Source: Candidatus Omnitrophota bacterium
GTDB taxonomy: Bacteria > Omnitrophota > Omnitrophia > Omnitrophales > JACQLI01
Direction: 5' to 3'
Length of the DNA: 59,102 nt
Assembly (NCBI GenBank): GCA_016179745.1
Contig: JACPCP010000021.1
Span: forward strand, 1-59,102
The position numbers and the translations under genes were made by a program. The notes below the pieces were generated by a model. That model was given only the letters and a program-made list of their open reading frames with translations. It had not been told where the DNA came from and did no database searches. Numbering within the stretch: the stretch's first letter is position 1; every line of letters begins with the position of its first letter. Shown here in pieces: positions 1 to 55,900 of this stretch.

Positions 1-75
1 TCTCGTTCATGGAGCGCCCGAGGAGGCCGAGTTCGTCGTCGGCCGTCGGCGTCGCCCGACCCGTCAGATCGCCGG
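1..75 (-). other. Foreign HAMP-domain coding fragment abutting the giant ORF (probable chimeric junction)
   Basis: A different minus-strand frame from the giant ORF reads ...GDLTGRATPTADDELGLLGRSMNE, a HAMP consensus (GDLT.R......DELG.L..S.N). It is much more GC-rich than the adjacent kinase DNA and does not match the HAMP of the GGDEF gene at about 50160-50310. Confidence 0.6.
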
Positions 76-805
76 TTCCCAATCGCCCGGGAGCTTGCCT
101 TTTATTTCATCGGTATTCGGCATACGGGTGTGTTGATAAAAAAACATTGCGAAGGATTCAGGCTCCCATCCTTCCCAGAGCGGACTGCCGTTGGCCAACT
201 CAAACAAAGTGACCCCGAGCGCATAAAGCTCCGCTTTTAAAATGCCTTCCTCTTCTTGTATTGACAACCACCCCATGGGAGGTTGATAAGCATGGGTCCC
301 TGCAAAAAGATCCGAGCCAAACGTGCGTAATTTTGAAAGAAGATCTTCTTCTCGAATGTGCGATAATCCGAAATCGATCAGCTTTAACCCCTGATCCGGC
401 AGGACCCTCATGTGTGACGGTTTAAGGTCCCGGTGTATGACTCCCAATTGATGCAGGGTTTCGATGATGTCCAAAAGCTCAAGGAATTTCCAAACAACCT
501 TCTTCGCGGGCCGTCCCACTGCCCATTCTTTAAGGTTTTCCCCTCCCAGATAGTCCATTGCCATCCAAAAGAGACTTGGTTTGTCTATAAAGCCGAAAGA
601 TTTAATCGCCGGGGCATGCTCCCAATGATCGATCATCAATTTTCTTAAAGCCTCCGCTTCTGCAGTTAGGCTATTAATACCTTCCAGCATTTTTTTCCCC
701 CCTAAATGGATTATTTTGACGGCGACTATCTCCTGAGTAGCAAGATTGAGCGCTTTAAAGATAACTCCCTGCCCCCCTTGGCCTATTAATTCTTCCAGGC
801 GGTAT
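64..805 (-). other. Ser/Thr protein kinase domain within the giant ORF (C-lobe incomplete)
   Basis: LIGQGGQGVIFKA, VAVK, HRDLKPSH, LIDFGLS, AGTHAYQPP, ELYALGVTL. Ends at LPGDWEPAI before the subdomain XI Arg. Confidence 0.85.
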
Positions 806-3800
806 TGTTCCTGGCCTTCTGCCGCCTTGGCGGGCACTAAGGAACCGATTAATTTTCTCCAGTCTAGTGCTTCGGAATTCCTAACCTCGGAGCGAATGTC
901 TGCCCCCTCAAAGATACTTTCCCCCTTCTTTTTCAAGTCAAGATTCTTCACCGCCTGCGACGGCTCAGAATGACGGAAGGACCGCACCTCGGAACGGAGG
1001 CGGACGGAGGCCGATTTTAAGAGTTCGTCGATCTGGGTTTTTAGTTCTGGGAGGGTCTCGCCGAAGCGGCGAACGGCTTTCTGAAAGACCGCAAATCTTT
1101 TTTCTCCCTTCGGCTGATCCACGAAGACGTGCCGGACAAAGGCGTTGAACCACTCCGCATCGGGCACCGGATCCTCTTTCGTGCCGGCGTGCTGCAAGGG
1201 TATCTCTGCCTTTTTTCGCCGAAGCTCTTCAAGACCGGCTTCCGCAGCCGCCTTCCACACCTGGTAAACCATTCCCATTTCTTCATAATCGTCCCGCAAA
1301 ACCGAAATGAAATTCTCCAAGCCGGCTGTATTCTTTGATTCGATCCTTTGTCCGATAATCCTGGAAACATCCCTAATCCTTCTCAGAAAGCCGCCAACGT
1401 CATGGGTTACCCAGGCGCCCCATTTCCTCTTTTCGATCTTTCCTTCCTCTCCTTCCTCTCGATTCCAAACAAAGATCTTGAACGGGCCAAGACCCGCCAA
1501 GACAGAGACAAGAGCTTCCAGATCTTCGGTCTTCTTCCCAATTTTCTCCGGCAGGGACCCCTGCAACTCTTTGGGCGCAACCGGCCAAACCACCTCTTTC
1601 TCCTTCGGCTGAAGGACGAGGGTGCGGAAGCGGCGGAAGACCGGCCACGGACGGCCGGCTTTCGTGTGCCGTTGGATCGACTTCTTAAGGTCAATTCGAT
1701 TTCCAACGCCGTCGTAATGGTGATAGCGGACTCCTGGCCGATCGGAAGTCTCTGTTCTCTGCTCAGCGGCTAGAAAATCTTCAAAGGGATAATCCCGGCC
1801 GACGGCGTCGTCAATGATTGATTCCTTGATGACTTCGAATTCAAGCCCGAGTTCGTCAAGAAGAGGTTTCACTGTCTTTTCAAAATCGATCCGGTCCACC
1901 AGTTGCAGAAAGATGACGCCGTCTTGACGAAGACGGGGAATGGCTTTCTGAAGCCAGAGACGGACGGAGTGAAGGCCGTCGTAGTGGTCGGAGCGGGAGT
2001 AAATCGTCCGCCCCCACCGAATCCGTGAGGCCTCTGCTGCGGGCTGGCTCTCCCATTCTTTTTCCTCCGGAGTGGGCATCTGATTGGGATTGATGAAGAG
2101 GACGTCGAACTTCGCATCGGGGGGGAGGCTGTCAAAATAAGGACTGATGAAAAAGTCGATTTTCTCCCGTGGGATTTCGTTCCGCATCCGGTTGATTTCA
2201 AGCACCGTGCCGGCATCCCCATTGAGATCCACCGCAACGGCCTTCTCAAACGGGGCGCTGTGCCTCGCAAGCCAGCGGTAAAGCGCCGTCAAAATTCCTC
2301 CGTGGCCCGTGCCGCCGTCGGCAACGACCTTGCCCTTAAAAAAGCCCGGATACTTTTTCTCATAGGCAACCGCTGCCCGGATGATCGACCAAAAGCCCTT
2401 GGTGGGAGCCGGGGTGGAGGGACCGGTGGTCAATTCAAAGGAGAAATCGTTCCCCAGAACAGGCATCAGGCCCGCCGGCTCCCTGTAATCTGAAACTTGC
2501 AAACCTTCGGAATTTCGGTTGTCACGGCTCGCTACCCTCATCGAGTCAAAGAGCCAACCGGCCTCTCCTTTCCGATCGGGATTCGTCAAAAGCCGATAAA
2601 GAGCGTCCAACACGTCTCGATAATTCTCTTCGAGGCTCCAGAGCGGTTCCGTGATGAGCCGACGGCCGATCTCTTCGATATGCCCCCGGTCATGAGACAA
2701 AGAGGACGGAGATCCGTTGAGAAGCCAAAGGGGCTCTTCGGTTTCTTTACGACCGCCGGCTTGAGACTGCCGTCCAACGACAGCTTCAGACTGACCTCCC
2801 CAATTAAACTTTTCGACTCGAAGCTCCTGATGAGCCCGCCCGAGATCATCCCGGGCCCACCTGAGGAGATCCGGATCGGTCCCGCTTCCCTTCTCTGTCC
2901 GCACCTCAGCCCGGGCGGCGGGAAGGATAAACTTCTCCGGATCGACAAATTCACGCCAGCGTCTGGCTTCGGCGTAGGCCTGGAAATCGAAATCCTCGAA
3001 ACGGCCGCCGTGTCGGAGCAGCGCAAAGGCAATCCGTGTCGAATCCTCCAGGGCTGTCTTACCTACTTCAAAACGAAACGGCTGCTTCCGGATCCATTCC
3101 TCAAGCTGGAGGGCGTCCAAATCCAGCCAAAATCCCTCAATCAAGGCCCACCCCAATTTGAAAAGCCGAAGGGGATCTTCAACGGAAGGAAGCACCAAGT
3201 CTCGAATCTCCCCCACTTTCTCAGAAACCCGCTTGGGCTCGATCCGACGCACTGACTCCGGATGGGCCTTGAAATAACCGGCGATCTCAATCGTTTTCTT
3301 TGCCCGATTCGCCCGGACCTCCTGAGCCAGCTTGAGATTATTTTTCCCTTGAAGGTTTAGCGTTTCAGAATCAAGCAGCCGACCGAGCTTGGCAAGTTCT
3401 TCCCCTAATAACCGGACCTCACCGGGCTCCAGCGAATCGACTTTCGCCTCCTCCAGGGTCTTTCTTACGGCATGAAGTGACTCTTCAAGGATCCGGACTC
3501 CGGAATGACGGCGGGAGCCTTGATGGTTCGTCCGGAACTCCAGGCTTTTTTCAATATCGTAGAGGGAATTCACGGCAAGCCGGAGCCTTTTGATCCAGCC
3601 CGCCTCCCTCTTGAGGGAAAGAAGTTCGGCGGAGGCCAAAAGAAAATAAAGGCGTCCCATCTGGGCCGCTTCCTCGTCCGGATGAAGCCGAAAGTCGTCA
3701 ACGACTGAATAAGCAATTTCCTTTGCCTTTCGAAGCTCCTCAACCTCGTTAAAAACAACCTCTTTGGGACTCGAAATCTGCGCCCTCGCCTTGCTCAAAT

Positions 3801-6800
3801 GAAGATGGACACGGGCCGCCTGGTCCTCTCTTCCGTTCAGTCCCTGACGGGGATCGTCAAGAATCTTTTCTGCTTCCTCAAACAAGGGCACGGCGTCACG
3901 AAATCTTTTTTGTCCCGCCGTTTCTACGGCCAGGCGGACCAAAATCATCGCCTTGTCCCCCCAAAGACCACGATCGCCGGGAGCCAGATTCAGCGCAGCA
4001 TCCACCCCGTCAAGACTTCTTTGATAGCGGGTGCCTCGCTCGCCCTTTTCCTGATCCTGACGTGCGGCGATGGCATCGTAAATGAGGGGGGTCTTCTTCA
4101 AAATAAACAGAAAAAGAGCGGTGAGTTTTTGATTCTGATTCCCTTCCAGGGCCATGAATACGGCAAGCCGTGTCAACTTTTCCCGGCCGATAAACTTTTC
4201 ATCCGGACCCGAGAAGGGCTCTTCCAGCGGAATCTCCAGCCCCTTGATTTTCGGGCCGAGCCGGGGGTCTTCGAGCGCCTCGTAGATAAAGGCCCGGAAG
4301 AGGGCCTCGATCAACTTTAGATCGCTCTCGTCATATTTTCCCGGGCCTCGGTCGATCAGTTTCGTCCAGAGCTCTCGAACCACAAAGTGGCGGAACGTCT
4401 TTTCGAGTCCCGCCTCAAGCGGAACCTTCGGCTTATAGCCAAAAAGTCGACGGGCTCTCTCGATCACCGGCTGCCGCTGTTTCGGATCGGTGGAATCAAT
4501 CTGGGACACGTCCACAACCGGGACTTCCACGCCGAGATATTTTCGTCCAAGCTCCTCAACCAGCCCGGCCAGTTCCCGGATCGTGAAGTTGCCGGGATTT
4601 CCGATGTTCACGACCCGGCCGTCGATCGGCGTCGACCGGGTGATCTCCCCGGTCTCAAGAAGTCCGACGATCCCTTCGAGCGTGTCTGCCACGAAACCAA
4701 AGCTCCGGTTTTGGCCCCCGCCGCCGTAAAGCTCGATCACACGGCCCTTGCCCGTGCCATAAGTTGATTTCCAAAATTGATCGAGCGCCGCCTGAATGAA
4801 ATTGGTAATGACCCGCCCGTCATCCAGCCGCATTCCGGGGCCATAGGTGTTGAAGATCCGGACAATCCGGGCATCGAGATAATGCCCCTCGGCCTTCTCC
4901 TTCTCGAAATAAAGCCGGATCAAGGTCTCGGCGCCACGCTTTGATTCGTCGTATTGGGAGCGCTTTCCAATCGGATTCACCCGGCCGGGGTAGTTTTCAT
5001 CCTGCGCTTCAACGTCCGGGTCGCCGTAAACTTCGGACGTGGAGGAAAACAGGAACCGGGCCTTCTTTTCACGGGCGAGGTCGAGGGCAATCTTCGTGGC
5101 CTGGAGGCCGGCAAGGAGTGTCTCAAGCGGCATCCCATAATAGAAGGGCGGGCTTGCGAGAGAGGCCAAATGAATGATTTCGTCAAGCTCGCCGTCGATG
5201 GTGTAGGGCTGGCTGACGTCTACATTTTTAAAAAAGAAATTCGGGTTTTCCTGAAGGTCCTTCAGATTGCTTTTGACGCCGCTTGCAAGGTTGTCGAGCC
5301 CAATCACCTGATGCCCTTCCTTCACAAGCCTGCGTGCAAGATTGGAACCGAGGAAGCCCGCCACGCCCGTCACAAGGATCCGTTTCTTCCCCGGCGGCAC
5401 GGGCGGGGGGAGGATGATTTCGGGTTCACGTTTTTCTCCAGACGGAATCTGGAATTCCTCAAACGTGAGCGTCTTAAACACCCCGTCCTCCTGAGCCGCC
5501 TCCGATGCCAAAGAATGAATGACAACCTGGCGGCTTTCAATCTGCTCTTCGGGTGACCCCTTGCTGTCATCAAATTTCTGCACAAGCAAATCGAGCGCCA
5601 CCGCCCGAAGGCTCTCCAGATCCGGGGTTTTGTCCGCCTTCCCTGTTTTCAGGATCCGAACGTCAACCTTTCTGCCGTCCTTGTCAGGAAACCGGAAATA
5701 GGCGCTGGCCCACGCCATCGCCACCCGGGCGCCCTCAATCCACGGCGCCTGGTCGTGGAGCGGCCCGTAACCCTCGAGCTCCTCCGGGACCACCAGCACC
5801 ACCGGAAGATTTCCCGCCCTCGCCTTTTCAAGGACCTTTAAGAAATCAAACGCCATCTCATGAAAATCTTCCCACGCTTGATCGAGATGCCCGCCAAAAT
5901 CAAATCCCCCGGCCGGCGCCCTCGGCGTCACATAAATCAGCCCCTTCGTTTTTCCCTCAGCATCAACGATCGAGAATCTGTTTGGCGCCGGGCCCCCTTC
6001 TTTGTTCCGCACCTCAGCCCTAGCCATCCCTCTTTTTCTCAACTCCGCCACCCGGGCGATTGCTTCCTGTGTTTCCTCAGGAAGGAGCTCAAGGCCGCTG
6101 AGTTCGCCCGGTTTGGTCCGATTCGGGGAAAGATCAATGGCATAGTAATCCTGGCCCTCTGAATCCTCTCCGGTGCTGCCGAGCCAGTAAAGAGGAAGAC
6201 CGAGATCTCTGGTCACGGATCGAATCATCGCAAACGACTCAAGCTGTCTCGTGTCTATCAATAGCCAGTAAAAACGAACAGATGGCCCCTCAGAAGGCCG
6301 TTCTCCTATAAATTGTTTCAGCGTCTCTGACACAAGCCGCTTCCCAAGCCCCTTTCCACGGAACCTCCGGCTGAGACCATAAGCACCCGTAACACCGGAC
6401 CACGCCTGGATCCGCCTTAGAGGGTTTCCCGTCAAATCCAGAGAGGTCAAATCGTCGGAAGCAAGCGCATGGAATCCGACAAGGCTCTTTGCCCTCTTCA
6501 GCGTCCAAAGCTTCACCACTTTGTTGCTCTTGAGCCAGAGGTCAACAGCCGTCAAAGCTTCTGTCTCAAACTCGCCAAGTTGCTCCGAATTGAGATAGCG
6601 CTCAATGAGCCGGAGAATGCTCTTAAACCTTTCTCTTGGCACTTCTTCGACCTTAAAATCTTCTGACCCGGCCCTCACTTCTACGCTGCGCATTTCAGAG
6701 CGTCCTTCCAGCCGGGCGCCGAAAACAACCGGGTGCCGGGCTTCCTTCGGGTCAAACCAGTTTTCCGGAAGCTGGCTTTTGCGGTCGTGAAGCTGACTTT

Positions 6801-9800
6801 GCAAAGCAGGAAGTTCCCGGCCCATCGTTTCAAGAATGTCAAAGGCGACGGACCGGACCCTCAGATCCGGATCGTCCAGATAATTCCATAAAATTCGAAG
6901 GGTCTGAATTTTTGCCCTCGTCGATGTTTTCCAGAGGTCGTCCGGGGTCTCAACGGCCGCCCTGAGGCGCCTCAGGAGAGCGGCCTCTCCCCATCTCAAT
7001 CGATGTTTCCTGAGAGCGGAAAAGAGCAAGGAAAAGAAGAGTGGGTCACTGAGGGAAAAAATTGGATTCCACTGAAGCAGCCAGACAGGCAAAGAAGTCA
7101 TCAGGGAACCGGCCGCCGCCAAAGCCCACGGAAACCATGGGTTATTTGAGGCCTGCGCCGTCCTCGCTTCCACCGCATTCCCGAACCGCCAGAGATATTT
7201 AGAAATCTTTTCAGGGTCGTAACGTCTCAGTGGATCAAGAAGGAACGGCTGATTCAAATCAAGCTTCGACCTTGTCTCTGAACGAACTCCCTCGATTCCC
7301 CGCACCTCGGAGCGGATGCCCTGGGTCGTGGGCGCATGGACCTCGGGGAAAAGATCGTTTCTCCAGAATGAATCCTTCCAATAGGGGGGATCGTATTCCT
7401 TGACCCAACCCGCAATCAGGTTGGCATAGCTGTGCAGTTCGGCGGAAATCAAATCGCCAAGTTGGGCGTGAACAGCCATCCGCTCAAGCAGTTTCACCCC
7501 CAAGGCAGCCAAATGCAGACGGACACTCTCGGACTCCAGGGCCGTCACGCTTTGACTCAAACGGGACGGCAGCAAGCCCATTGAATCCCGAGACGGTTCG
7601 TGCGCTGAAAGGAATCGGACTTTTTCCGCTTCGGGCCATTTCTCCCCTGACCTCGGAGTAAAGTATCGGCCCAGAAGCTCGATCAAGCTTGTTAGATCAC
7701 TTAAGGTCGTTTTACCTTTATGAATTCCGCCCGCTTGGCTTAAGGAGATGAGCGCAAAAAGCGCAAGCCCCAGAATGAGGAGGGGACGTGCTTCGTCAGC
7801 CGATGCGCTCCCCTCCTTGAGTTTTAGATAGAGCTCCTCCATTTCCTGTTCGATTTGTGATCTCAACAGCACAAGATGGGCTTGTTCGAGGCGGTCTAAC
7901 TTTTCCGAATGGGGAGGCGCCAAGAAATCCCGGAATTTCAGCAGAGCGTAAATCCCCCGCCGAAGAATCCCTGAACCGAGATCCAGACCCCCCCCTTTCC
8001 CGGACAGGACCCATTCCGCCCACGGTTCGAATAACTTTGCTTGGAGGCCGAGAAACTCTTTCATTAATTCTACCGACCGAGGGGACAGATACGCCTCCGG
8101 AACGCCGCTGAGGATCAAAACGTCGGTGATGCTCCCTGGGCCCCCCTGCGCCGAAGCGGCCAGTTTTCTCATCCGACTTAATGAATCGGTGAGCCGGGCC
8201 TCAAAGACATCTTCGTAGGCCGGGCCGATCCGTCTGAAACCGCCCACCTCCGGCATCTTCTCGACATAACGCCTGTCGTCACCCAATACCCTCAACACCG
8301 ACTCCGGCGGCACTCCTTCGACGATGAGGATCGCCCCGGGCTTCATTCGAAGCACCACCTCGGAAAGGTCTGTCAAAATCTCAGCCGCCCTGACAACGGT
8401 TTTACCCGGCTCCCCCTTCATCGAAGGATAGAGATAAACAACGTCATATTCCCGAAGCGAAACCTTCTCATCCAGGTAATTCTTATGGAGGATATGGATC
8501 CGCTCCGGATCAACCGCTCCTTGCTCGCTTAACGCCCGGGTCGCCTCTTGAGAAAGCTTCCATAAATACCGGTCCTGCTCAAACCCGAACAATTCGACGC
8601 CCAAACCTTGAGTTTCCGCATTCCACAGATGGACGACATAACCTGTTCCTGATCCAAGCTCCGCAATCTTTGAACCTTTCTTAAGATGGCCGGATTTTCC
8701 CAAGCTCCTCAAATGGTCAAGGGCGTGGGCCTCCGATGTCCGGGTGTAGAGATAGAGACCCCGGCTCGTATCCCAAAGATCGGGCCGCTCCTCCTGGATT
8801 CTATGGGAAAGCCCTTGGTGAAGTGAGCGGATGGTCTCTCTTGGCTGAGCCAAGACCCCGGAGCGGGGAGGGGGAAGGGGAAAATGCAAGCGGAGGGCGT
8901 AGCGACCCTCGGGGGGCGCACGGTCTCTCACCACGGAGATCCAGACTTCAGAACCGGGGAAGGAGTGAAGGCGCTTCATTAATTGAATCAGAGGCGCCAA
9001 TTCGAGCGCCAAAGAGGACGCAAGATCATCAAGGGCATGATTCCAATTCTTCTGATTTTCTGCCGTCAATCCGCCTGTTTCTTCTTTCGTTTTCCGCAAC
9101 ACTTGAAGCACGGGGGTCTGTGACTCCTTGAGACGGACCCCTCCAAAATCAAGAATCGTCCTTTTCCCTGAGTCATCCCGAACTTCAGCTTCCAGCGGGA
9201 TTTCTCCCTGCTGCCAGATTTCCTTCATCACTCCCCTCATCCGTTCCCGGTCCTGGAGCGGAATGTTTCCCAATGCCTCGTCAATTCCCTTAAAATCCCC
9301 CGCCCTTTCCTCTTTATCCAGGCTTTTCATCAATTTCTGCTGTTGCCACCCCAAGAAAACAAAAAGAAGAAAGCCGCCGAGCGTCCCGGCCACCCAAACG
9401 ACCGGAAGATTTCCATAACCGGGAAACATCCAGAGAGAAAGTTCCCCGGACCAGAGAAAATAAGCGGAACCCAAAAGGCCGAGGGCCAATAGGCCCAGGG
9501 AGAGGATTTGATAACGAATCGTTGTCTTGAGATCGTTGACCTCTTCGTCTACCTCTTTCGCCGGCATCCCGTCGATCGTCTCCTCCGCCCCCGCCTTCCC
9601 CCGCACCTCGGCCCTCACTACGTCATCCTGAGCACCCGCAGGGTGCGAAGGATCTCGGGTTTCTGATCCTTCACTCGGCCCGAACGGGCCTCGCTCAGGA
9701 TGACGGATTTCCCGGCGCACCTCGGCCCGGGGAGCTGAATCTGTGGGCTCTTTCGATTGTTTGTCATTCCCTTCCTGAGACTTGGAATGTTTCCGGTGGC

Positions 9801-12800
9801 TTCTGTGAATTTTTACCAGAACCATAAGCCCGATGCCGACCGGAATGAGATATACCAAAGCGACTGCCATCAAGATCTGTCCACTCAAAAAATAAACTAG
9901 AGCAGCGACCAGGCTGATTACCCATCCCATGACAACCCCAATCCACGCTAGATTCTTTGTAACGATCCAATCGAGTTTTCTTACCTTCTTCTCCCAATGA
10001 ACCAGTCGCTTCTGAAATGCGGAAGGATTGCTTGGTTGGCTCTTTTTTTCGTCGAAGTCTCCTCGAATCGCTCTGAGTTTCTCTTTGAGCTCGGTAAGAC
10101 GAACGGTATCCTTTACCATCTTCGGGAACTCCCTAATTAGCCTCAGCGGCCGCCATTCTTGATCTAAGCTTTCTTCTATCTCCTTGTACCCTTCTCCGAC
10201 GGTTATCAACTGGTCCCACAGATCCCGGTCCGATCTATCTTGCGTCCGCACCTCGGCGCGGGAGGGGGGAGTGCGAAGCTCGGGGCGGCCGCCTTCTTCT
10301 TCGAATTCGATTCTCGATTTTTCTGATCGTATGCCCGGTTTCTCTGAAGTCTCCTTCCTCTCCCTCGTCCCTTCTTCCATTTTCTTCCGTATCTCTTTAA
10401 GTCCTTGCAGAGATTCCTCCATCTTCTCCTCACGATCCCAAATACCTTTAAGAAACTCATAAAACCGCTTGGCCGCCTTTCGGAGAGCAGGATCTTCTGC
10501 TTCATCCATAGCAATCCGGTTCAATAGATCAAGAATTTCGGTTCTGTCACCCCCATAGCCGATTGCGATCCACCAGAGTGCCTTTGTTACTGCCTCACGC
10601 ACCGGGGGCGGATTCCGCTCACCCTTTTCTTTGAGAATCTCGATGAGGAGAGGCACCGCCCCCATTGCCTGCTCGCCCATTGATTTGAAGATTAAAATGA
10701 TTTCTCTTCGGACCCCCGGATCTGTCTCCTGCCTCAATGCATCCATCAAGGAAGGAACAAAGGGGATGACAAGGGGGTTGTCCAAACTCTGCACCCTGTC
10801 CGCCGAGAGAATGTGAATCGCCATCTTTTGAAGCTCCGGCGTGCCCTCTTTGGCCAGTGTTAGAAGCTCAAGCGCAACCGATTCAATTCCCGGCCACGAC
10901 AGATCCTCGAGGATCTGGGATAGGAACTCCTGGACTGAGCCGGCGGCCTTGCCACCCTTCTTGAATTGCACCATCGCTTCTTGAGCCAGAGTGATTCTCT
11001 CAGAAATATCGAGCCACGCATTCAATTCAATCCAATCCCAGTCATCCAGAAAATTCCGTGCGGCATCGGCCACCGATGGGTCTTTGTCTCCAGCGAGCCG
11101 GATGACGGATCGGAAAAGGTCTACTTTGTCAAAACCAGCCGGCCAAGATGAACCGAAGAGAGGTTTGAGGTTGTCTGAAATCAACACAAGTGCTGCGACC
11201 TTCACCTGCGGATCCGGTTCCTTCAGTAAAGCCGCCAGCTCAACAATCAAAATGACCTTCCCCTCATCGGCCAAATTGAAAAGAAGATTCTTAATCTCGT
11301 AAGAAACGTCGCCCCGGAGCCTCGGGTCCTTCAAAAGGGAGACGTAAAGAGGGATCCAATCACCAATCCCCCTAGGCACAAAACCGATACGGGAGGTTAG
11401 AGCTGCAAGCGCAGCGAGTCTCACTTTTGGAAATTCGTCCGGGTTCTTCAAGGTTTCGGCCAATCTGGTTTTGAATTCGGAGTCCCAGGCCTTTTGAACG
11501 TCGGTGGGCTCAGTGAATGCGAAAAGCCTGGCCAACGTCATGATGGCCGCTTCCCGAACGTCGGGGGACCTGTGGTTCAAACGTTTCATCAAATGAGGGA
11601 TGGTTTCCTTGGCTTCGGAGCCGATTTCACTGATGTAGAGCATGGCTTTCTGTAAGTTCTTTATTTCCTCAGGACTTTTTTCCTTTGGATCACTCCCCTC
11701 TCCTTTGATGAGCCTGATCAGCTCTTCCTTCGACTCCCGGATTGCGTGTCTTCGATTCGGATCGATGGTGTGATATTTTTCAATCTTCTGAAAGGTAATC
11801 TTCACTCTCCACTCGTTGTATTCATTCTGCGCGCCTGAAACGGCCGATTTGAGGGAAGGCTTCGACAGGTGCCAGACCGCTGTCCATTCAAGTAATTCCC
11901 AGGCTAACGAAATCAGAAGCATCCCGACTATCAAGGACACCATCCGAAACTCCTTTTTCTGGTGATACCTCTTCGTTTCCTCAAGAAGGATTTGTGAGAA
12001 GGCAAAGAGAAAATGCCGAACCTCCTCTGTTTCTACGATTTCCCCCTTCTCATCCTTTAAAGGCGGAACCTTCTCGTCAAAGTAAGCTCGGTCTCCGCTT
12101 GCCCAGTCCGAAGCGGTGTCGCGCATCCCGTCAGGCAATTTTCTTGCAAGGAGCTTCGCTTGGCGAGGCGCTTCCTCTTTAAGGAAAGTTTGCCGCTCCA
12201 CTTCAGATAAATTCATGATGATTCTCGAAATCTCTCTAAAGAGCGCGGTGAGCTGTCCGCGGGCCAGCGTCGGGCGGTCCCCCTTATGCAGTTCTTTATC
12301 CTTGAGCACGTTCTCGAGGATCATCATGAGGTCGATCTTCTCCGGTCGTTCCGTCTCCCCCCGCACCTCGGCGCGGGAGAAGGATTCGGCGCGACGGAAA
12401 AGTTGTGTTTTAAAACGCTCCTTTTCCTGGAGGGAAACCATGCTTGAAATGACCAGCTTGATATCGAGGGTGCTTGCGAGGCGGTCACGATACGGGATGT
12501 CATCGAGGACTTCAGCGAGCTTTGGGAGCACGGGCACGACGGTGATACCGGCCCGCTCGAGGCCTTCCCTCAGACCCGTCTCGTGAAAGCCGCCCACCAC
12601 GGCGACGGTGGCTTTGAGTCTCGAGTGTGACAATTCCCTGAGAATTTTGCCGGCGAAGATTCGATCTCTTCTATCTGCCAGGGCGTAGAAACGAAGGGCG
12701 GGGCGGGCGGCCTCTTGGAGCGATCGAATCTCCCTTTTCGACAAACCAAGCGTTGCAAAAAATTGCTCCCCAGCGCCCGTCTTCCTAATCTGCTCCCAAT

Positions 12801-13674
12801 CCTTCGACTGAAGCTCCAGACGGAGGAGCGATTTGAGGCGCTCAAGGGACTGAATTTTATCGATCAGGTCCTTTTCCTCTTTTGACTCGGCCAGACGGCC
12901 ATAAATTTTCTCCGTGAGCGCCTCCAGCTCCTCCCCGAACAACCCTTTGTGAATCCCTTCAGTTAACTGAACGGAGATCTCGCTTTTACTTTCCGAAAGG
13001 GCCCTCGAGAAAAGATAAAGATTGGGAAAATCCACGAGTGAAACCCTCGCCTGCTTCGCAGATTCGAGGAGGAGCGGAAAATATTCCCCGGACCGAACCG
13101 CCCTCGCCTGAAACCGCTCATTCAGCTCGAGAAAGCGCTGAAGTTTGGGGGATAAAATCTTTTCTCTTGATCCTGCCAGCGAACGCTCCGCCTGCTCCAC
13201 GATGGGACGAATTCTTTCGCCCGCCTTCACCGTCCGAATGAAGGCTTCCCGGTTCCGGAGGTAGAACTCCTTTTTTTCCAAACCGTAGAATCGGGGGAGT
13301 TTTTCAGCCGTGATGTAAAAGTATTCGGCGCCGGTGAGCTTCCCTTCCCTCACCATTTCCCAGGCGGCCTGGGCCAGCGCATTTTTCTCCGGAAAGGTGC
13401 GGAAGAGGCGGCCGTCGATCGGGTCGCTGGCGCCTTCGAGACCGATGCTTGAAACCCCCTTCTTTTGGAAAAAACGGAGGAGGCGTGCAATTTGTCTTTG
13501 AGTTTCGCTTGAGGCGTGGGCGTTTAGGAGAAGATAAACGGTTTTTGTTCCAGGCGGTTTTTCAAGCGGCGGGGCGCCCGGAAAGGCGGCGGCGGTCTCC
13601 GAGGTAAAACAAATTAGGGTAACGAGTGCCGCCAGTTTCAAAAAGGGCCGCTTCTTTTGGAAATGATGTTCCAT
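64..13674 (-). CDS. Giant multidomain secreted/membrane protein (4536 aa), probably 3'-truncated
   Basis: Uninterrupted ORF with an N-terminal signal-like sequence (KKRPFLKLAALVTLICFTSETAAA), several hydrophobic TM segments, HEAT-like repeats, enzyme motifs and a sigma70-like promoter upstream. Confidence 0.92.
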   Translation of the reverse strand: MEHHFQKKRPFLKLAALVTLICFTSETAAAFPGAPPLEKPPGTKTVYLLLNAHASSETQRQIARLLRFFQKKGVSSIGLEGASDPIDGRLFRTFPEKNALAQAAWEMVREGKLTGAEYFYITAEKLPRFYGLEKKEFYLRNREAFIRTVKAGERIRPIVEQAERSLAGSREKILSPKLQRFLELNERFQARAVRSGEYFPLLLESAKQARVSLVDFPNLYLFSRALSESKSEISVQLTEGIHKGLFGEELEALTEKIYGRLAESKEEKDLIDKIQSLERLKSLLRLELQSKDWEQIRKTGAGEQFFATLGLSKREIRSLQEAARPALRFYALADRRDRIFAGKILRELSHSRLKATVAVVGGFHETGLREGLERAGITVVPVLPKLAEVLDDIPYRDRLASTLDIKLVISSMVSLQEKERFKTQLFRRAESFSRAEVRGETERPEKIDLMMILENVLKDKELHKGDRPTLARGQLTALFREISRIIMNLSEVERQTFLKEEAPRQAKLLARKLPDGMRDTASDWASGDRAYFDEKVPPLKDEKGEIVETEEVRHFLFAFSQILLEETKRYHQKKEFRMVSLIVGMLLISLAWELLEWTAVWHLSKPSLKSAVSGAQNEYNEWRVKITFQKIEKYHTIDPNRRHAIRESKEELIRLIKGEGSDPKEKSPEEIKNLQKAMLYISEIGSEAKETIPHLMKRLNHRSPDVREAAIMTLARLFAFTEPTDVQKAWDSEFKTRLAETLKNPDEFPKVRLAALAALTSRIGFVPRGIGDWIPLYVSLLKDPRLRGDVSYEIKNLLFNLADEGKVILIVELAALLKEPDPQVKVAALVLISDNLKPLFGSSWPAGFDKVDLFRSVIRLAGDKDPSVADAARNFLDDWDWIELNAWLDISERITLAQEAMVQFKKGGKAAGSVQEFLSQILEDLSWPGIESVALELLTLAKEGTPELQKMAIHILSADRVQSLDNPLVIPFVPSLMDALRQETDPGVRREIILIFKSMGEQAMGAVPLLIEILKEKGERNPPPVREAVTKALWWIAIGYGGDRTEILDLLNRIAMDEAEDPALRKAAKRFYEFLKGIWDREEKMEESLQGLKEIRKKMEEGTRERKETSEKPGIRSEKSRIEFEEEGGRPELRTPPSRAEVRTQDRSDRDLWDQLITVGEGYKEIEESLDQEWRPLRLIREFPKMVKDTVRLTELKEKLRAIRGDFDEKKSQPSNPSAFQKRLVHWEKKVRKLDWIVTKNLAWIGVVMGWVISLVAALVYFLSGQILMAVALVYLIPVGIGLMVLVKIHRSHRKHSKSQEGNDKQSKEPTDSAPRAEVRREIRHPERGPFGPSEGSETRDPSHPAGAQDDVVRAEVRGKAGAEETIDGMPAKEVDEEVNDLKTTIRYQILSLGLLALGLLGSAYFLWSGELSLWMFPGYGNLPVVWVAGTLGGFLLFVFLGWQQQKLMKSLDKEERAGDFKGIDEALGNIPLQDRERMRGVMKEIWQQGEIPLEAEVRDDSGKRTILDFGGVRLKESQTPVLQVLRKTKEETGGLTAENQKNWNHALDDLASSLALELAPLIQLMKRLHSFPGSEVWISVVRDRAPPEGRYALRLHFPLPPPRSGVLAQPRETIRSLHQGLSHRIQEERPDLWDTSRGLYLYTRTSEAHALDHLRSLGKSGHLKKGSKIAELGSGTGYVVHLWNAETQGLGVELFGFEQDRYLWKLSQEATRALSEQGAVDPERIHILHKNYLDEKVSLREYDVVYLYPSMKGEPGKTVVRAAEILTDLSEVVLRMKPGAILIVEGVPPESVLRVLGDDRRYVEKMPEVGGFRRIGPAYEDVFEARLTDSLSRMRKLAASAQGGPGSITDVLILSGVPEAYLSPRSVELMKEFLGLQAKLFEPWAEWVLSGKGGGLDLGSGILRRGIYALLKFRDFLAPPHSEKLDRLEQAHLVLLRSQIEQEMEELYLKLKEGSASADEARPLLILGLALFALISLSQAGGIHKGKTTLSDLTSLIELLGRYFTPRSGEKWPEAEKVRFLSAHEPSRDSMGLLPSRLSQSVTALESESVRLHLAALGVKLLERMAVHAQLGDLISAELHSYANLIAGWVKEYDPPYWKDSFWRNDLFPEVHAPTTQGIRSEVRGIEGVRSETRSKLDLNQPFLLDPLRRYDPEKISKYLWRFGNAVEARTAQASNNPWFPWALAAAGSLMTSLPVWLLQWNPIFSLSDPLFFSLLFSALRKHRLRWGEAALLRRLRAAVETPDDLWKTSTRAKIQTLRILWNYLDDPDLRVRSVAFDILETMGRELPALQSQLHDRKSQLPENWFDPKEARHPVVFGARLEGRSEMRSVEVRAGSEDFKVEEVPRERFKSILRLIERYLNSEQLGEFETEALTAVDLWLKSNKVVKLWTLKRAKSLVGFHALASDDLTSLDLTGNPLRRIQAWSGVTGAYGLSRRFRGKGLGKRLVSETLKQFIGERPSEGPSVRFYWLLIDTRQLESFAMIRSVTRDLGLPLYWLGSTGEDSEGQDYYAIDLSPNRTKPGELSGLELLPEETQEAIARVAELRKRGMARAEVRNKEGGPAPNRFSIVDAEGKTKGLIYVTPRAPAGGFDFGGHLDQAWEDFHEMAFDFLKVLEKARAGNLPVVLVVPEELEGYGPLHDQAPWIEGARVAMAWASAYFRFPDKDGRKVDVRILKTGKADKTPDLESLRAVALDLLVQKFDDSKGSPEEQIESRQVVIHSLASEAAQEDGVFKTLTFEEFQIPSGEKREPEIILPPPVPPGKKRILVTGVAGFLGSNLARRLVKEGHQVIGLDNLASGVKSNLKDLQENPNFFFKNVDVSQPYTIDGELDEIIHLASLASPPFYYGMPLETLLAGLQATKIALDLAREKKARFLFSSTSEVYGDPDVEAQDENYPGRVNPIGKRSQYDESKRGAETLIRLYFEKEKAEGHYLDARIVRIFNTYGPGMRLDDGRVITNFIQAALDQFWKSTYGTGKGRVIELYGGGGQNRSFGFVADTLEGIVGLLETGEITRSTPIDGRVVNIGNPGNFTIRELAGLVEELGRKYLGVEVPVVDVSQIDSTDPKQRQPVIERARRLFGYKPKVPLEAGLEKTFRHFVVRELWTKLIDRGPGKYDESDLKLIEALFRAFIYEALEDPRLGPKIKGLEIPLEEPFSGPDEKFIGREKLTRLAVFMALEGNQNQKLTALFLFILKKTPLIYDAIAARQDQEKGERGTRYQRSLDGVDAALNLAPGDRGLWGDKAMILVRLAVETAGQKRFRDAVPLFEEAEKILDDPRQGLNGREDQAARVHLHLSKARAQISSPKEVVFNEVEELRKAKEIAYSVVDDFRLHPDEEAAQMGRLYFLLASAELLSLKREAGWIKRLRLAVNSLYDIEKSLEFRTNHQGSRRHSGVRILEESLHAVRKTLEEAKVDSLEPGEVRLLGEELAKLGRLLDSETLNLQGKNNLKLAQEVRANRAKKTIEIAGYFKAHPESVRRIEPKRVSEKVGEIRDLVLPSVEDPLRLFKLGWALIEGFWLDLDALQLEEWIRKQPFRFEVGKTALEDSTRIAFALLRHGGRFEDFDFQAYAEARRWREFVDPEKFILPAARAEVRTEKGSGTDPDLLRWARDDLGRAHQELRVEKFNWGGQSEAVVGRQSQAGGRKETEEPLWLLNGSPSSLSHDRGHIEEIGRRLITEPLWSLEENYRDVLDALYRLLTNPDRKGEAGWLFDSMRVASRDNRNSEGLQVSDYREPAGLMPVLGNDFSFELTTGPSTPAPTKGFWSIIRAAVAYEKKYPGFFKGKVVADGGTGHGGILTALYRWLARHSAPFEKAVAVDLNGDAGTVLEINRMRNEIPREKIDFFISPYFDSLPPDAKFDVLFINPNQMPTPEEKEWESQPAAEASRIRWGRTIYSRSDHYDGLHSVRLWLQKAIPRLRQDGVIFLQLVDRIDFEKTVKPLLDELGLEFEVIKESIIDDAVGRDYPFEDFLAAEQRTETSDRPGVRYHHYDGVGNRIDLKKSIQRHTKAGRPWPVFRRFRTLVLQPKEKEVVWPVAPKELQGSLPEKIGKKTEDLEALVSVLAGLGPFKIFVWNREEGEEGKIEKRKWGAWVTHDVGGFLRRIRDVSRIIGQRIESKNTAGLENFISVLRDDYEEMGMVYQVWKAAAEAGLEELRRKKAEIPLQHAGTKEDPVPDAEWFNAFVRHVFVDQPKGEKRFAVFQKAVRRFGETLPELKTQIDELLKSASVRLRSEVRSFRHSEPSQAVKNLDLKKKGESIFEGADIRSEVRNSEALDWRKLIGSLVPAKAAEGQEQYRLEELIGQGGQGVIFKALNLATQEIVAVKIIHLGGKKMLEGINSLTAEAEALRKLMIDHWEHAPAIKSFGFIDKPSLFWMAMDYLGGENLKEWAVGRPAKKVVWKFLELLDIIETLHQLGVIHRDLKPSHMRVLPDQGLKLIDFGLSHIREEDLLSKLRTFGSDLFAGTHAYQPPMGWLSIQEEEGILKAELYALGVTLFELANGSPLWEGWEPESFAMFFYQHTRMPNTDEIKGKLPGDWEPAI
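941..975 (-). repeat. Half copy of the GTCAT(C/T)CTGAGC palindromic element, in frame in the giant ORF
   Basis: Minus strand CGTCATTCTGAGCCGTCGCAGGCGGTGAAGAATCT matches the left arm of the element at 14466-14582 (CGTCATTCTGAGC...GAAGAATCT). Translates as RHSEPSQAVKNL. Confidence 0.7.
1640..2420 (-). other. Class I SAM-dependent methyltransferase domain (HemK/MTS-like) within the giant ORF; boundaries approximate
   Basis: Motif I VVADGGTGHGG, AVAVDLN, and an NPP-like motif FDVLFINPNQMP. Confidence 0.75.
4381..5388 (-). other. NAD-dependent epimerase/dehydratase (UDP-glucuronate decarboxylase-like) domain within the giant ORF
   Basis: ILVTGVAGFLG, HLASLASP, STSEVYG, YDESK (YxxxK), RIFNTYGPGM..DDGRVITNFI, NIGNP, DP.QR.P.I. 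Confidence 0.9.
6110..6640 (-). other. GNAT acetyltransferase-like domain within the giant ORF; boundaries approximate
   Basis: Acetyl-CoA binding motif A: AYGLSRRFRGKGLGKRLV. Confidence 0.65.
8250..8740 (-). other. Class I SAM-dependent methyltransferase domain within the giant ORF; boundaries approximate
   Basis: KIAELGSGTG, LFGFEQD, HKNYLD, YDVVYLYP, MKPGAILI. Confidence 0.75.
9621..9705. repeat. Palindromic (REP/RPE-like) element inserted in frame in the giant ORF
   Basis: Perfect 13-bp terminal inverted repeat CGTCATCCTGAGC/GCTCAGGATGACG, inner inverted repeat GAAGGATC/GATCCTTC, and two small hairpins (GCACCC-GCA-GGGTGC; GGCCCG-AA-CGGGCC). Translates as RHPERGPFGPSEGSETRDPSHPAGAQDD. 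Confidence 0.85.
10450..11680 (-). other. HEAT/PBS-lyase-like repeat region within the giant ORF; boundaries approximate
   Basis: Repeated motifs such as IPHLMKRLNHRSPDVREAA, LLKEPDPQVKVAAL, DKDPSVADAA, ETDPGVRREI, AVPLLIEIL. Confidence 0.75.
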
Positions 13675-52993: not shown

Positions 52994-55900
52994 TTAAGAC
53001 ACGCTGTAACAGGTGGTTCCCACGTCACCGCATTCGCAGGCGTGGCATTTGCAATTGCACTCTCCATAAGAGGTGCTGGAAGAAAGCTCCGACTCGGTAA
53101 TGGTTCGGGCGCACTGGCTGCCGGTGTCCGTCGTACCCAAAGCACCCGAAGTATCGCATTTTCCGATAGAATTGCCGCCGCATTTTGCCGTATCGATCGA
53201 TTCACAAGAGCAACACCAGTAGCGTTCACCGCCTGTCTCCTCCTGGCCGTTCACCGGTGTGTATCCGGAAGGACATTTCGCAGTCCCGCACTTTTTGGAG
53301 CTCATCGTCCCGACACCGGCCAGACAGGAAGTTTTTGTGGAAGCGCAGCGAACCCCCCGATAAATCCGGGTCCCGCTATTATAGGTTAGGGTGGGAATCG
53401 TTTCCGCCGAGCCTTGGCATTCTGAGATGTCACCCCCGCAACAATCGGTATCGATTTCCCTTTTCTCGGTCGTCACACACCAATAGTTCGTCCCATCGCT
53501 GTCGAGCCCCTTGTCGCCCACTTTATAGCAGAGGGCGGGGTCCAGGCCCTCCTTCGGATCTTTCCCCTTTACCAAGATACCGCCGGTGCAGGTGATTTCT
53601 GCTTTTTCCGTCTTTGGCTTTGGGCACTTGGCCGTGAACACGTCTACCTGCCCGGAACAAACCCCTTCGGCAGTGACAGAAATTTTTCCCTCTTCTTTAC
53701 ACCGGATTTTGACACGGGGCGTCCCTTCTCCTTCAACAATTTCTGCCGGACCCTCCACGGACCAGTGAAATCCTTCGCCATCGCATGGAGGTCCCTCTGC
53801 GTCGTCCTGGACGGCAGCCCACGCCGCTTTTTCCTCAAACCATTCCCTCTCAATCTCACCGGAGGCCGAACGGTTGTCTTCGCAGGTGCTTTGAGCGGTG
53901 ATCGTCAACATTCCGTCCGAACCAACCTGGGCGCCTCCAGATATTTCTACCCGACAGTCCTTTCCGCAGTTGGGTATTTCTTCATGCCGGCAGCCTGCCC
54001 GTGGGTCACACGAATCGGCCGTGCAGGGGTTATGGTCATCGCAATCGGAAGCTTGTCGGCATGCCGGAGGAGTTTCCGGCGGCGTTCCCGAAACAATGCA
54101 TCGATTGCAAGCGGGTGAACAGACACGTCCCCGGCGGCACGTTCCCTGTTGGCCAGGCGGGTCACACTTCTCGCCCCTGCCGATCTTCCCGTCTCCGCAA
54201 ACAACCGGCTCGGAAACACATTTGGTGCAGCTAACGTCGCAGATTGCACCTTTCTTACAGATGCCTTGCTGCCCCGGAGGATCGCACCGTTCATCCTTCG
54301 TAATCTTGCCGTCACCGCAGACGAGGGGTTCGTTGACGCACTTGGTGCAGCTGACGTCGCAGATGGAGCCCTTACCGCAGACGCCTTTTTCGCCTGGAGG
54401 ATCGCAGCGTTCGCCCCGGTCGATTTCTCCATCTCCGCACTGCGCACCGGGCTTGGGACTGCAACCTCGGCAATCGGAACGGCAGATTTTGTCACTAGGA
54501 CACCGAACGCTCGCCTCTCCCGGGGGATCACAGCGCTCATCAGGTCCAATGATCCTGTCACCACAGGATTGGGGTGCCGGACTGCAGCTTTGGCAGTTAG
54601 AACTACAGATTTTATCACGGGGACACCGATCGCTTGGCTGTCCCGGCGGGTCGCAACGCTCACCACCGTTAACACTACCATCACCACAATTTGCGGGCGG
54701 AGCCGGAGCGCCGGGAGGGCGGATGAGCTCAACACACCCACGTTGTTCCACAATACATTGTTCACCCGTTGGACAGAGGCCGTTATTCGGAATGTGTTGG
54801 CAAAAACCATTTTGACATTGGTCGGTCGTGCATTGAATTCCGTCGTCAACACACGGCTCACTATTATGTATGTAAGCACATCCCACCGCCGGATTGCACG
54901 AATCGGTGGTGCAGAGGTTGCTGTCATCGCAGACAAGCGGCGCACCGGCCACGCATTGTCCGTCTTGGCATTTTTCTTCGCCGTTGCACCGGTTTGTATC
55001 CATACAATCGGCGTCCGTCTGACAAACTCCGGGAGGCGGCGCTTGAGTGAGGGCTTCCCGCTTGCATTCTGCTGAACAGCCGTCGCCCGAATTCGTATTC
55101 CCGTCGTCGCATTCTTCGGGCGAATCAATGAGGGTGTCGCCGCAGACAACGGGGCGGCACCCTTCGCAGACGCCCACGCATTCCGGCGTGCCGCAGTTAT
55201 CGCCCGAGATTTTAACTTCTCCGGCCCCGCAAGCCCGGGACACGTTGATGCAGATGAATTCCGTCCCCCGGGAAGAACAAATGAAATCCTTCGGACACTC
55301 GCCCAGGGACGTTGGACAACTGCACGGCCTGCATTTGGGCGATTGGCCCGTAGCGACACAAAGGCCGCTTTCACACAAGGTCCGGGTGGTGCACTCTTCG
55401 CATTGCCCGGCTGAAACCTCGTGACACGCCCCGACGCCGCAATCGAAATCATCAAAACAGACCCCCGGTAGGAGCGGCTTGCAGCTTCCATTCTGACATC
55501 GCTCGCCTGCCGGACATTGCATCTCGGTAAATTGGCACTTGCCTTCTAAGGTATCGCAGGAATCCAAAGTGCAGGCGTCCTGGTCGTCGCAGGCAAGGGG
55601 TTGTCCGGCCCGACATTGACCTTGGACACACGTCTCGATGCCGTTGCAGGCATTTCTGTCGTCACAAGCAGAGTCGGCTTGACAACCTCTGGGAGGAGGA
55701 GGTTCAGGAATTGTTATCAACTGACAACACCACTTGCTCTGGAAGCCCGTTCCGCATTCCAAGGCAGTGATCCTTCCGCCAATTTGGCTGCATTGTGCCG
55801 ATCCGGTCGTGCAAATGCCGTTGGGACATTGAGCGGAGTCCTGCCTGCAAACGACGTTAAAAAATTGCTGGGGCACACACACATTCGAGAAAGAACAAAG

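Follow-up and report, generated by a model that had tools for sequence, protein, structure and literature searches.

The giant genes of Omnitrophota are a recognised puzzle, and the papers that describe them leave undecided whether, and where, their products are cut. West-Roberts et al. 2023 (10.1101/2023.11.21.568195) suggested cleavage by C39 or S8 domains in such proteins, and missing cleavage-point information prevented an analysis module by module. The same question is raised by a 59,102-nucleotide (nt) contig of a Candidatus Omnitrophota genome (JACPCP010000021.1, assembly GCA_016179745.1), referred to here as the window. Its minus strand carries, at positions 64..13674, an open reading frame (ORF) of 4,536 codons, here named P0001. 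The original prediction, made from the letters of the window, described P0001 as a candidate polyprotein effector array, an exported precursor divided by an R-[SA]-E-V-R motif that would serve as a processing or recognition signal. Our results identify this motif as a lineage-specific delimiter peptide, separating independently evolving modules of giant, cysteine-free mosaic Omnitrophota proteins. A role as a protease site would be its best-supported mechanism, to which we give a probability of about 0.5. A sharp, countable delimiter makes the cutting question testable, as it predicts exact termini.

Motif counts and module boundaries

All 11 motif copies listed for P0001 by the original prediction were recovered (Table 1). 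Nine match R[SA]EVR exactly, and the variants RSETR and RSEMR complete the set; the protein's own composition would give 0.023 exact copies, or 0.14 with a broader choice of fourth residue. Across the genome (1.50 Mb in 25 contigs, GC content 55.7%, 79% complete) the pattern R[SA]E[VAMLIT]R occurs 179 times. Twelve large ORFs led by the same N-terminal domain as P0001, termed here the head, hold 110 of these copies at a density of 2.49 per 1000 amino acids (aa). A further 55 belong to ORFs of 1,500 aa or more in which no head was detected; five of these ORFs, truncated at the N-terminus by a contig end, account for 52 of them. In the rest of the proteome (384,444 aa) there are 14 copies, or 0.036 per 1000 aa against 0.023 expected, and six large ORFs without a detected head contain none. 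Two of the checks proposed with the original prediction thus gave a positive result: the motif is enriched over the rest of the proteome, and it recurs with the same N-terminal domain in other giant genes. The motif is a real, non-random signal, far beyond chance, and the counts rule out chance or low complexity as its origin. Since the copies concentrate in head-led and giant ORFs throughout the genome, the motif belongs to a gene family and not to the window; what had been put forward as the best candidate for a new system of this window is rather a clade-wide feature of a large gene family. The median spacing between copies in the genome is 256 aa, and 22 of 152 intervals (14%) are short double sites with spacers of 5–40 aa.

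The position of the motif at the boundaries of unrelated modules is best seen in alignments. No copy falls inside the Pfam or NCBIfam envelopes of P0001 (HEAT repeats, epimerase with a Pfam envelope of aa 2764–3093, kinase), an observation that is by itself marginal (about 0.76^11 = 0.05). When all pairs of available motif-bearing giants were compared, 16 of 48 homology-block ends lay no more than 15 aa from a motif, where random placement gave 3.8 ± 1.9 (1000 randomisations, maximum 11). The closest relative found, a giant ORF from another genus of the same family (G003), has only two pieces in common with P0001. Its head is 60% identical to that of P0001 and the alignment ends a few residues past the motif (...FSRAEVRGETER against ...FSRSEVRNKGQR), which bears out the claim that the first copy follows an N-terminal domain of about 430 aa. 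The methyltransferase-like module of P0001 (aa 3588–4031) matches aa 955–1403 of the G003 giant at 39% identity; the aligned stretch opens with RAEVR in both proteins and closes a single residue short of the next delimiter of the G003 protein. A third block, between aa 2000–2630 of the G003 giant and aa 1721–2316 of a giant on contig C8 of the present genome (59% identity), is likewise bounded by the motif. These alignments show that the motif marks the edges of evolutionary modules, homology blocks that move between giant genes. The accompanying claim of low-complexity linkers holds in part: the flanks are polar, with Pro enriched before and small residues after the motif, and they are not strictly low-complexity.

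Module edges are not uniformly kept. The G003 giant closes its methyltransferase-like module with a delimiter, and at the homologous point, aa 4031, P0001 has none and continues for 195 residues (997-1581, minus strand) before the next copy, which shows that a delimiter can be lost or two modules joined. An exhaustive search with the methyltransferase-like module returned only 10 weak, generic methyltransferase matches, and a search for free-standing counterparts of the 222-aa module, which has a weak GNAT match, found none. The 762-aa module at aa 1359–2120 contains a GSGTGY motif resembling an S-adenosylmethionine (SAM) binding site by eye, and has no Pfam match. The segment between delimiters 8 and 9 (aa 2557–3587, 1,031 aa) comprises the epimerase and unannotated flanks.

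The head-led ORFs are also set apart by their composition, with 26 Cys in 44,109 aa (0.059%), where ordinary ORFs have 1.0%. P0001 has a single Cys, at aa 22 in the signal-peptide-like segment, so that the predicted mature chain is Cys-free. The embedded epimerase is the reciprocal best match (BLASTP) of free-standing frames of 312–392 aa in eight related genomes, at 42–43% identity, above the 30–36% between those frames and the free-standing paralogues of this genome. It contains no Cys, against 2–5 in its free-standing counterparts, and a normally free-standing sugar-nucleotide enzyme was therefore apparently captured and then purged of Cys.

Selection on the peptide and on its DNA

Within this genome's family 15–16 in-frame bases of the motif are nearly invariant, and the question arises of which molecule is under selection. 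The coding strand, in frame 0, holds every exact 15-mer (33 of 33) and all but one of the 31 with a single mismatch. The mismatches fall at third codon positions, are synonymous C/A changes of Arg, or replace Val with Ala; no other first- or second-position change is seen. This pattern of frame and mismatch is the signature of selection on the peptide. A transposon footprint or other frame-blind DNA repeat was considered and is ruled out, all near-consensus copies but one being in frame on the coding strand. Codon choice inside the motif nevertheless departs from that of the genome, with CGC at 55% against 15–17%, GAG at 76% against 50% and GTG at 85% against 33–37%; GCC makes up 81% of the Ala codons, CGG stands at 67%, GAA is used in 24% of copies and the preceding base is C in 69%. 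The resulting 16-nt consensus, C CGC KCC GAG GTG CGG, is an imperfect palindrome and recurs in the other genus, G003. Synonymous deviations from it are clustered: 43 copies are fully consensus against 16 expected, and 39 carry four to six deviations, again against 16 expected. We read this as a mix of young copies with the founding DNA and old, drifted copies that keep the residues.

These features invite a reading in which the primary function lies in the DNA, the in-frame near-palindrome acting as a recombination junction at which cassettes are swapped and the peptide being its tolerated translation. Such a role would account for the codon use, the preceding C, the consensus shared with G003, the excess of fully consensus copies and the homology breakpoints at the motif. 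As the primary function we nonetheless judge it improbable. The one-mismatch variants are synonymous or conservative, sparing first and second codon positions apart from the change of Val to Ala, other frames hold no copies and the opposite strand almost none, and the arms of the palindrome show no compensatory covariation; an RNA hairpin across the near-palindrome is ruled out on the same ground. Two other lineages have delimiters without any DNA consensus. A giant ORF of L018 contains eleven RSELR, RSEMR or RAELR copies that show free codon variation at Ser, Glu, Leu and Arg and have no GAGGTG, and the [GA]KSLG delimiter of G013 varies synonymously at every position, including AGY/TCN switches of serine. 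Because both vary so freely in their codons, the general signal is the peptide, and the DNA consensus is particular to this genome's family and G003. There a role as an exchange junction is likely as a secondary function and may coexist with that of the peptide; it cannot be the general one. The near-invariant bases would then be the trace of recent, frame-preserving module exchange at the delimiter. A signal acting at translation, in which either ribosomes pause between modules at a Shine-Dalgarno (SD)-like GAGGTG core or a 2A-like skip is triggered by the nascent peptide, is more improbable still, to the point that we give it little weight. GAGGTG complements the canonical 3' end of 16S rRNA, GAG and GTG are the favoured codons and the motif is strictly in frame. 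However, the RSELR and KSLG lineages lack any SD-like core, for which reason an SD-like pause is rejected as a general mechanism. The GAA codon interrupts the core in about a quarter of this genome's copies, neither a start codon nor a slippery site follows the motif, and we know of no bacterial 2A-like mechanism.

A proposed reader of the delimiter

If the signal is a peptide, something should read it, and the distribution of delimiter types bears on what this may be. Compared with its reversed control, the R[SA]ExR DNA pattern is in excess in only four families, f1, f5, f7 and f9, all of the same order. The spelling differs between lineages, being RSELR, RSEMR, [GA]KSLG, xxRLA or none. Eleven copies of [GA]KSLG(E) are spaced by about 250 aa in a locus of G013 (L022, G013:C1:36000-50000), P0009 has about 15–22 copies of [AG][AG]RLA, and in P0003, which lacks R[SA]ExR, GASLG is the most repeated pentapeptide with three copies. 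Within the present genome the heads are only 20–40% identical to that of P0001 and form several deep subfamilies, yet all of these divergent genes use the identical R[SA]EVR spelling. In the head tree, the R-type head from contig C15 is sister, with strong support, to the GASLG-type head of P0003, and the head from contig C14 is sister to that of P0012, a protein with a single RAEIR copy. In other lineages, closely related heads go with different delimiters or with none, and the starred branches of the tree force at least three changes of label. As the delimiter type follows the genome and not the head subfamily, the reader would be shared by the genome and act in trans, and the pattern argues for such a reader rather than a protease acting in cis.

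The head, about 400 aa long, is itself widespread. Its profile matches 188 of 301 sampled Omnitrophota genomes, and its named homologues are records of 'Candidatus Omnitrophota bacterium'. An alignment of 24 heads has 11 invariant columns, including H53, E80, an Arg near residue 336 and G361-G362-x-H364. In a confident AlphaFold (AF2) model (pLDDT, the predicted local distance difference test, 85.5) a small alpha/beta core is split by a large helical insertion, and H53, E80 and GGxH sit after strands. The top two Foldseek matches, 3b55 and 6xcs, are erythromycin-esterase-like (E 0.14, TM-score 0.24). Pfam matches among the paralogues are weak, with ChaN in five (best E 0.01), TraB/PrgY in one (3.2e-5) and Ere in one (0.085). 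The head of P0001 has no Pfam match, a sequence search of the PDB with the head profile returned nothing, and no canonical TraB genes were found in relatives when sought for a comparison profile. Given that three weak lines agree, the head probably belongs to the Tiki/TraB/ChaN/erythromycin-esterase hydrolase superfamily. It resembles that superfamily (Tiki, TraB, PrgY, ChaN and Ere) in its alpha/beta core, in which strand 1 is followed by a His, strand 2 by a Glu and a late strand by GGxH; it differs in the insertion of about 220 residues that splits the core and in the lack of a significant match for P0001. The head also occurs as a free-standing frame of about 530–550 aa in several families outside the motif-bearing order (G087:C66, G137:C3, G283:C6 and G047:C111), with one detected match per genome in G137, G283 and G047 and two in G087.

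The residues around the motif resemble a cleavage site. In 60% of copies (n = 176) the last Arg is followed by S, G, T, A or N, and L, F, W and Y are rare at this position; Pro is never found there (0 of 176, p = 2e-4) and Met exceeds background (9 of 176, p = 0.001). Pro is frequent before the first Arg (33 of 176, p = 1e-10). A Pro-free P1' position next to a fixed basic P1 would resemble a scissile bond after the last Arg. On this model the motif would be the recognition site of a site-specific endoprotease, common to the whole genome and acting in trans, that most likely cuts behind the last Arg (Arg at P1, a small residue and never Pro at P1'), and the giant chain would be a polyprotein from which individual membrane and enzyme modules, about 250 aa long in the median, are set free.

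Two other accounts of the peptide have to be weighed against this one. The motif may be a docking peptide that is never cleaved, each copy being bound by a chaperone, a translocon component or a scaffold such as the HEAT or TPR modules while the protein stays in one piece. Peptide-level selection, position in linkers and lineage-specific spelling fit docking equally well, the double sites could provide avidity, and the several transmembrane segments (from hydropathy, and from the reading of related proteins in 10.64898/2026.06.07.730766 as having a signal peptide and transmembrane helices) suggest a single anchored assembly. We regard it as possible but doubtful: the absolute exclusion of Pro and the preference for small residues after an invariant Arg are typical of scissile bonds, the modules are unrelated enzymes with no evident need for linkage, and a candidate binding partner was not found. 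Lower still we place the idea that the head of each giant is a cis-acting protease that reads the motif, an option named in the original prediction. Its invariant His, Glu and GGxH, the weak matches of family members to ChaN, TraB and Ere, and its best fold matches to erythromycin-esterase-like enzymes speak for this option, and all complete motif-rich ORFs carry a head with the first motif after it, with the exception of three short ones (C8 2042..4534, C22 3..1202 and C6 754..14118). However, the delimiter type tracks the genome, so that the head is disfavoured as the protease that sets specificity. Heads are also common in lineages without the motif and as free-standing proteins of about 540 aa, the superfamily membership of the P0001 head is below significance, and the head is predicted to lie outside the membrane with several motifs on the other side.

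Several observations weigh against cleavage by a protease in trans. A protease that would read the motif was not found: S8 (subtilisin) and C14 (caspase-like) peptidases, which were considered as readers, are absent from this genome and uncorrelated with the motif in 40 relatives. Head-led giants of some sister lineages (G022 of family f8; P0007 and P0011–P0015) have no recognisable delimiter, so that a giant can do without one. P0001 itself has several clear domain boundaries free of the motif, such as the Pro-rich linker before the epimerase (aa ~2750), the residue preferences around the motif would suit an uncleaved docking site as well, and the strong codon-level consensus of this genome's family is not explained by a protease site alone. 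The semi-tryptic peptides that the original prediction offered as evidence would be uninformative at the motif because trypsin itself cuts after its arginines.

Where the chain would act is suggested by two features that point to different places. The Cys purge and the signal-peptide-like N-terminus would suit export or an oxidising environment; modules that depend on NAD, SAM and ATP would suit a cytoplasm, either the cell's own or that of prey. For the effector array of the original prediction the evidence is divided, the signs of export speaking for it, and the cofactor needs and the kinship of the embedded epimerase to free-standing enzymes of relatives against it. Speculatively, the head-led giants may be translated cassette arrays, a protein-level alternative to the operon, in which unrelated genes, among them captured housekeeping enzymes later purged of Cys, are held in one frame behind an export head, are swapped between giant genes by frame-preserving recombination at the delimiter, and have their products freed by a lineage-specific trans protease whose code (R[SA]E-hydrophobic-R, [GA]KSLG or xxRLA) co-evolves with the genome. 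The Cys-free modules would then work beyond the cytoplasm of the cell that makes them, perhaps on prey or inside it. We offer this synthesis tentatively and consider it unlikely in its full extent.

The giant gene in its window and among known systems

The features of P0001 are collected in Table 1. A hydropathy scan, run without a dedicated predictor, gives about 6–7 peaks along the protein. Five plus-strand ORFs of 156–252 aa within the gene have no Pfam match and were rejected as nested antisense genes. Its neighbours are housekeeping genes (Ham1, RNase PH, QueC, Glu racemase and others), and neither a protease or secretion component nor machinery for ribosomally synthesised and post-translationally modified peptides (RiPPs) was found among them. 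Elsewhere in the window, a 1,781-aa ORF at 52994-58339 (minus strand) has 245 Cys (14%) and Dicty_CTDC/DUF4215 Cys-rich repeats, the opposite extreme to the Cys-free giant.

Table 1. Features of P0001 in residues of the protein and in coordinates of the window
Feature	Residues (aa)	Position in window	Strand	Basis or remark
Signal-peptide-like N-terminus	1-31	13582..13674	-	judged by eye (KKR, hydrophobic stretch, then AAA|F)
Head domain	~40-425	12400..13557	-	alignment, structure model, profile
Delimiter 1, RAEVR, CGCGCCGAGGTGCGG	434	12361..12375	-	perfect DNA consensus
Predicted transmembrane segment	576-600	11875..11949	-	hydropathy scan
HEAT-repeat region	689-1068	10471..11610	-	Pfam
Delimiter 2, RAEVR	1139	10246..10260	-	perfect DNA consensus
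Two predicted transmembrane segments	1241-1291	9802..9954	-	hydropathy scan
Delimiter 3, RAEVR	1316	9715..9729	-	
Delimiter 4, RAEVR	1354	9601..9615	-	33-aa double site with delimiter 3
762-aa module, three predicted transmembrane segments	1359-2120	7315..9600	-	hydropathy
Delimiter 5, RSEVR	2121	7300..7314	-	perfect DNA consensus
Delimiter 6, variant RSETR	2131	7270..7284	-	5 aa beyond delimiter 5
Delimiter 7, variant RSEMR	2325	6688..6702	-	
222-aa module	2330-2551	6022..6687	-	weak GNAT acetyltransferase match (E 0.003)
Delimiter 8, RAEVR	2552	6007..6021	-	
NAD-dependent sugar-nucleotide epimerase/dehydratase domain	2763-3098	4381..5388	-	Pfam/NCBIfam
Delimiter 9, RAEVR	3588	2899..2913	-	
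Methyltransferase-like module	3593-4031 (core ~3780-3950)	1582..2898	-	homology to G003
Delimiter 10, RSEVR	4227	982..996	-	
Delimiter 11, RSEVR	4261	880..894	-	29-aa double site with delimiter 10
Ser/Thr protein kinase domain	4291-4506	157..804	-	Pfam/NCBIfam; begins 25 aa past delimiter 11

A second, terminal signature accompanies the family. The ending -SA or -AA is found in eight of the 10 complete head-led ORFs of the genome, compared with 24 of the 1,171 remaining ORFs, and most external homologues share it (for example P0002–P0012); contigs of this genome with such giants include C1, C8, C12, C14, C15 and C22. P0001 lacks this usual ending. It closes with ...GDWEPAI, and since the ORF stops 63 nt from the contig end, its 3' end may be unusual or may reflect the assembly break. 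The idea of a conserved tail domain at the C-terminus was rejected, as BLAST of the last 350 aa shows no similarity and the terminal -SA/-AA alone is common, and so was a copy of the tmRNA tag, which ends ...PLAV (LAV) and is not the same. On contig C8 four consecutive minus-strand ORFs (2042-64883), all with the motif, are separated by gaps of at most 63 nt, and the two shortest overlap by 58 nt. The end of C8 (64883) and the start of C22 carry an identical stretch, NERGFLTLEDLSRAEVR, inside giant ORFs, from which it follows that the assembly breaks at repeats within giant genes.

For the giant genes as a class, the delimiter gives natural boundaries for the structure prediction and annotation of thousands of unannotated segments, and its type is a phylogenetic marker with which the reading enzyme can be hunted by co-variation. 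Should cleavage be confirmed, the head-led giants would be cellular polyproteins of a size without known precedent in bacteria, and their lineage-specific codes a new example of protease–substrate co-evolution. A very specific five-residue site might also serve as a biotechnological cleavage tag.

Partial counterparts exist in several systems. MARTX toxins are large exported chains of unrelated enzyme modules that vary between strains by recombination and are freed by cuts in the linkers between modules. P0001 shares with them the array of unrelated enzymatic modules in one large chain. It differs in having no C80 cysteine protease domain, RTX repeats or type I secretion signal (Pfam, NCBIfam), in its sharp five-residue delimiter in place of a Leu-X site, in an apparently trans-acting and lineage-specific reader, and, in relation to autoprocessing, in a predicted mature chain without any cysteine. 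Viral polyproteins are cut at junction sites such as the Gln|Gly of picornavirus 3C, and likewise place unrelated units in one frame with a short conserved peptide at the boundaries. Here the genome is that of a cell and carries about a dozen such genes, and no encoded dedicated protease was identified in it. In cyanobactin precursors of the PatE type, short recognition peptides, in places conserved as DNA, flank hypervariable cassettes. The resemblance extends to the partial conservation of the flanking peptides as DNA; the cassettes of P0001-type giants are whole modules of 30–1000 aa rather than cores of 6–8 residues, with no RiPP machinery nearby.

The nearest comparison is with the giant multi-enzyme ORFs of Omnitrophota themselves. 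A study of complete Omnitrophota genomes (10.64898/2026.06.07.730766) describes 'multi-enzyme metabolic clusters' with a signal peptide and transmembrane topology, suggests export of such proteins and stresses a tier of at least 10 thousand amino acids (10 kaa), which P0001 at 4,536 aa does not reach. In term searches the words motif, cleav-, linker and cysteine are absent from that study, and neither it nor West-Roberts et al. 2023 mentions a Tiki-like head, a Cys purge or an -SA/-AA end. The literature searched holds no description of RAEVR or RSEVR in this sense. The two papers give no delimiter or cleavage motif, and the S8 peptidases that had been suggested are absent from this genome. 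In other respects P0001 resembles the proteins they describe: it comes from the same phylum, is very long and is tiled by unrelated domains (HEAT, epimerase, methyltransferase-like, GNAT-like and kinase). It may also combine, as they do, a signal peptide, to judge by eye from its N-terminus, with transmembrane helices, to judge from its hydropathy peaks.

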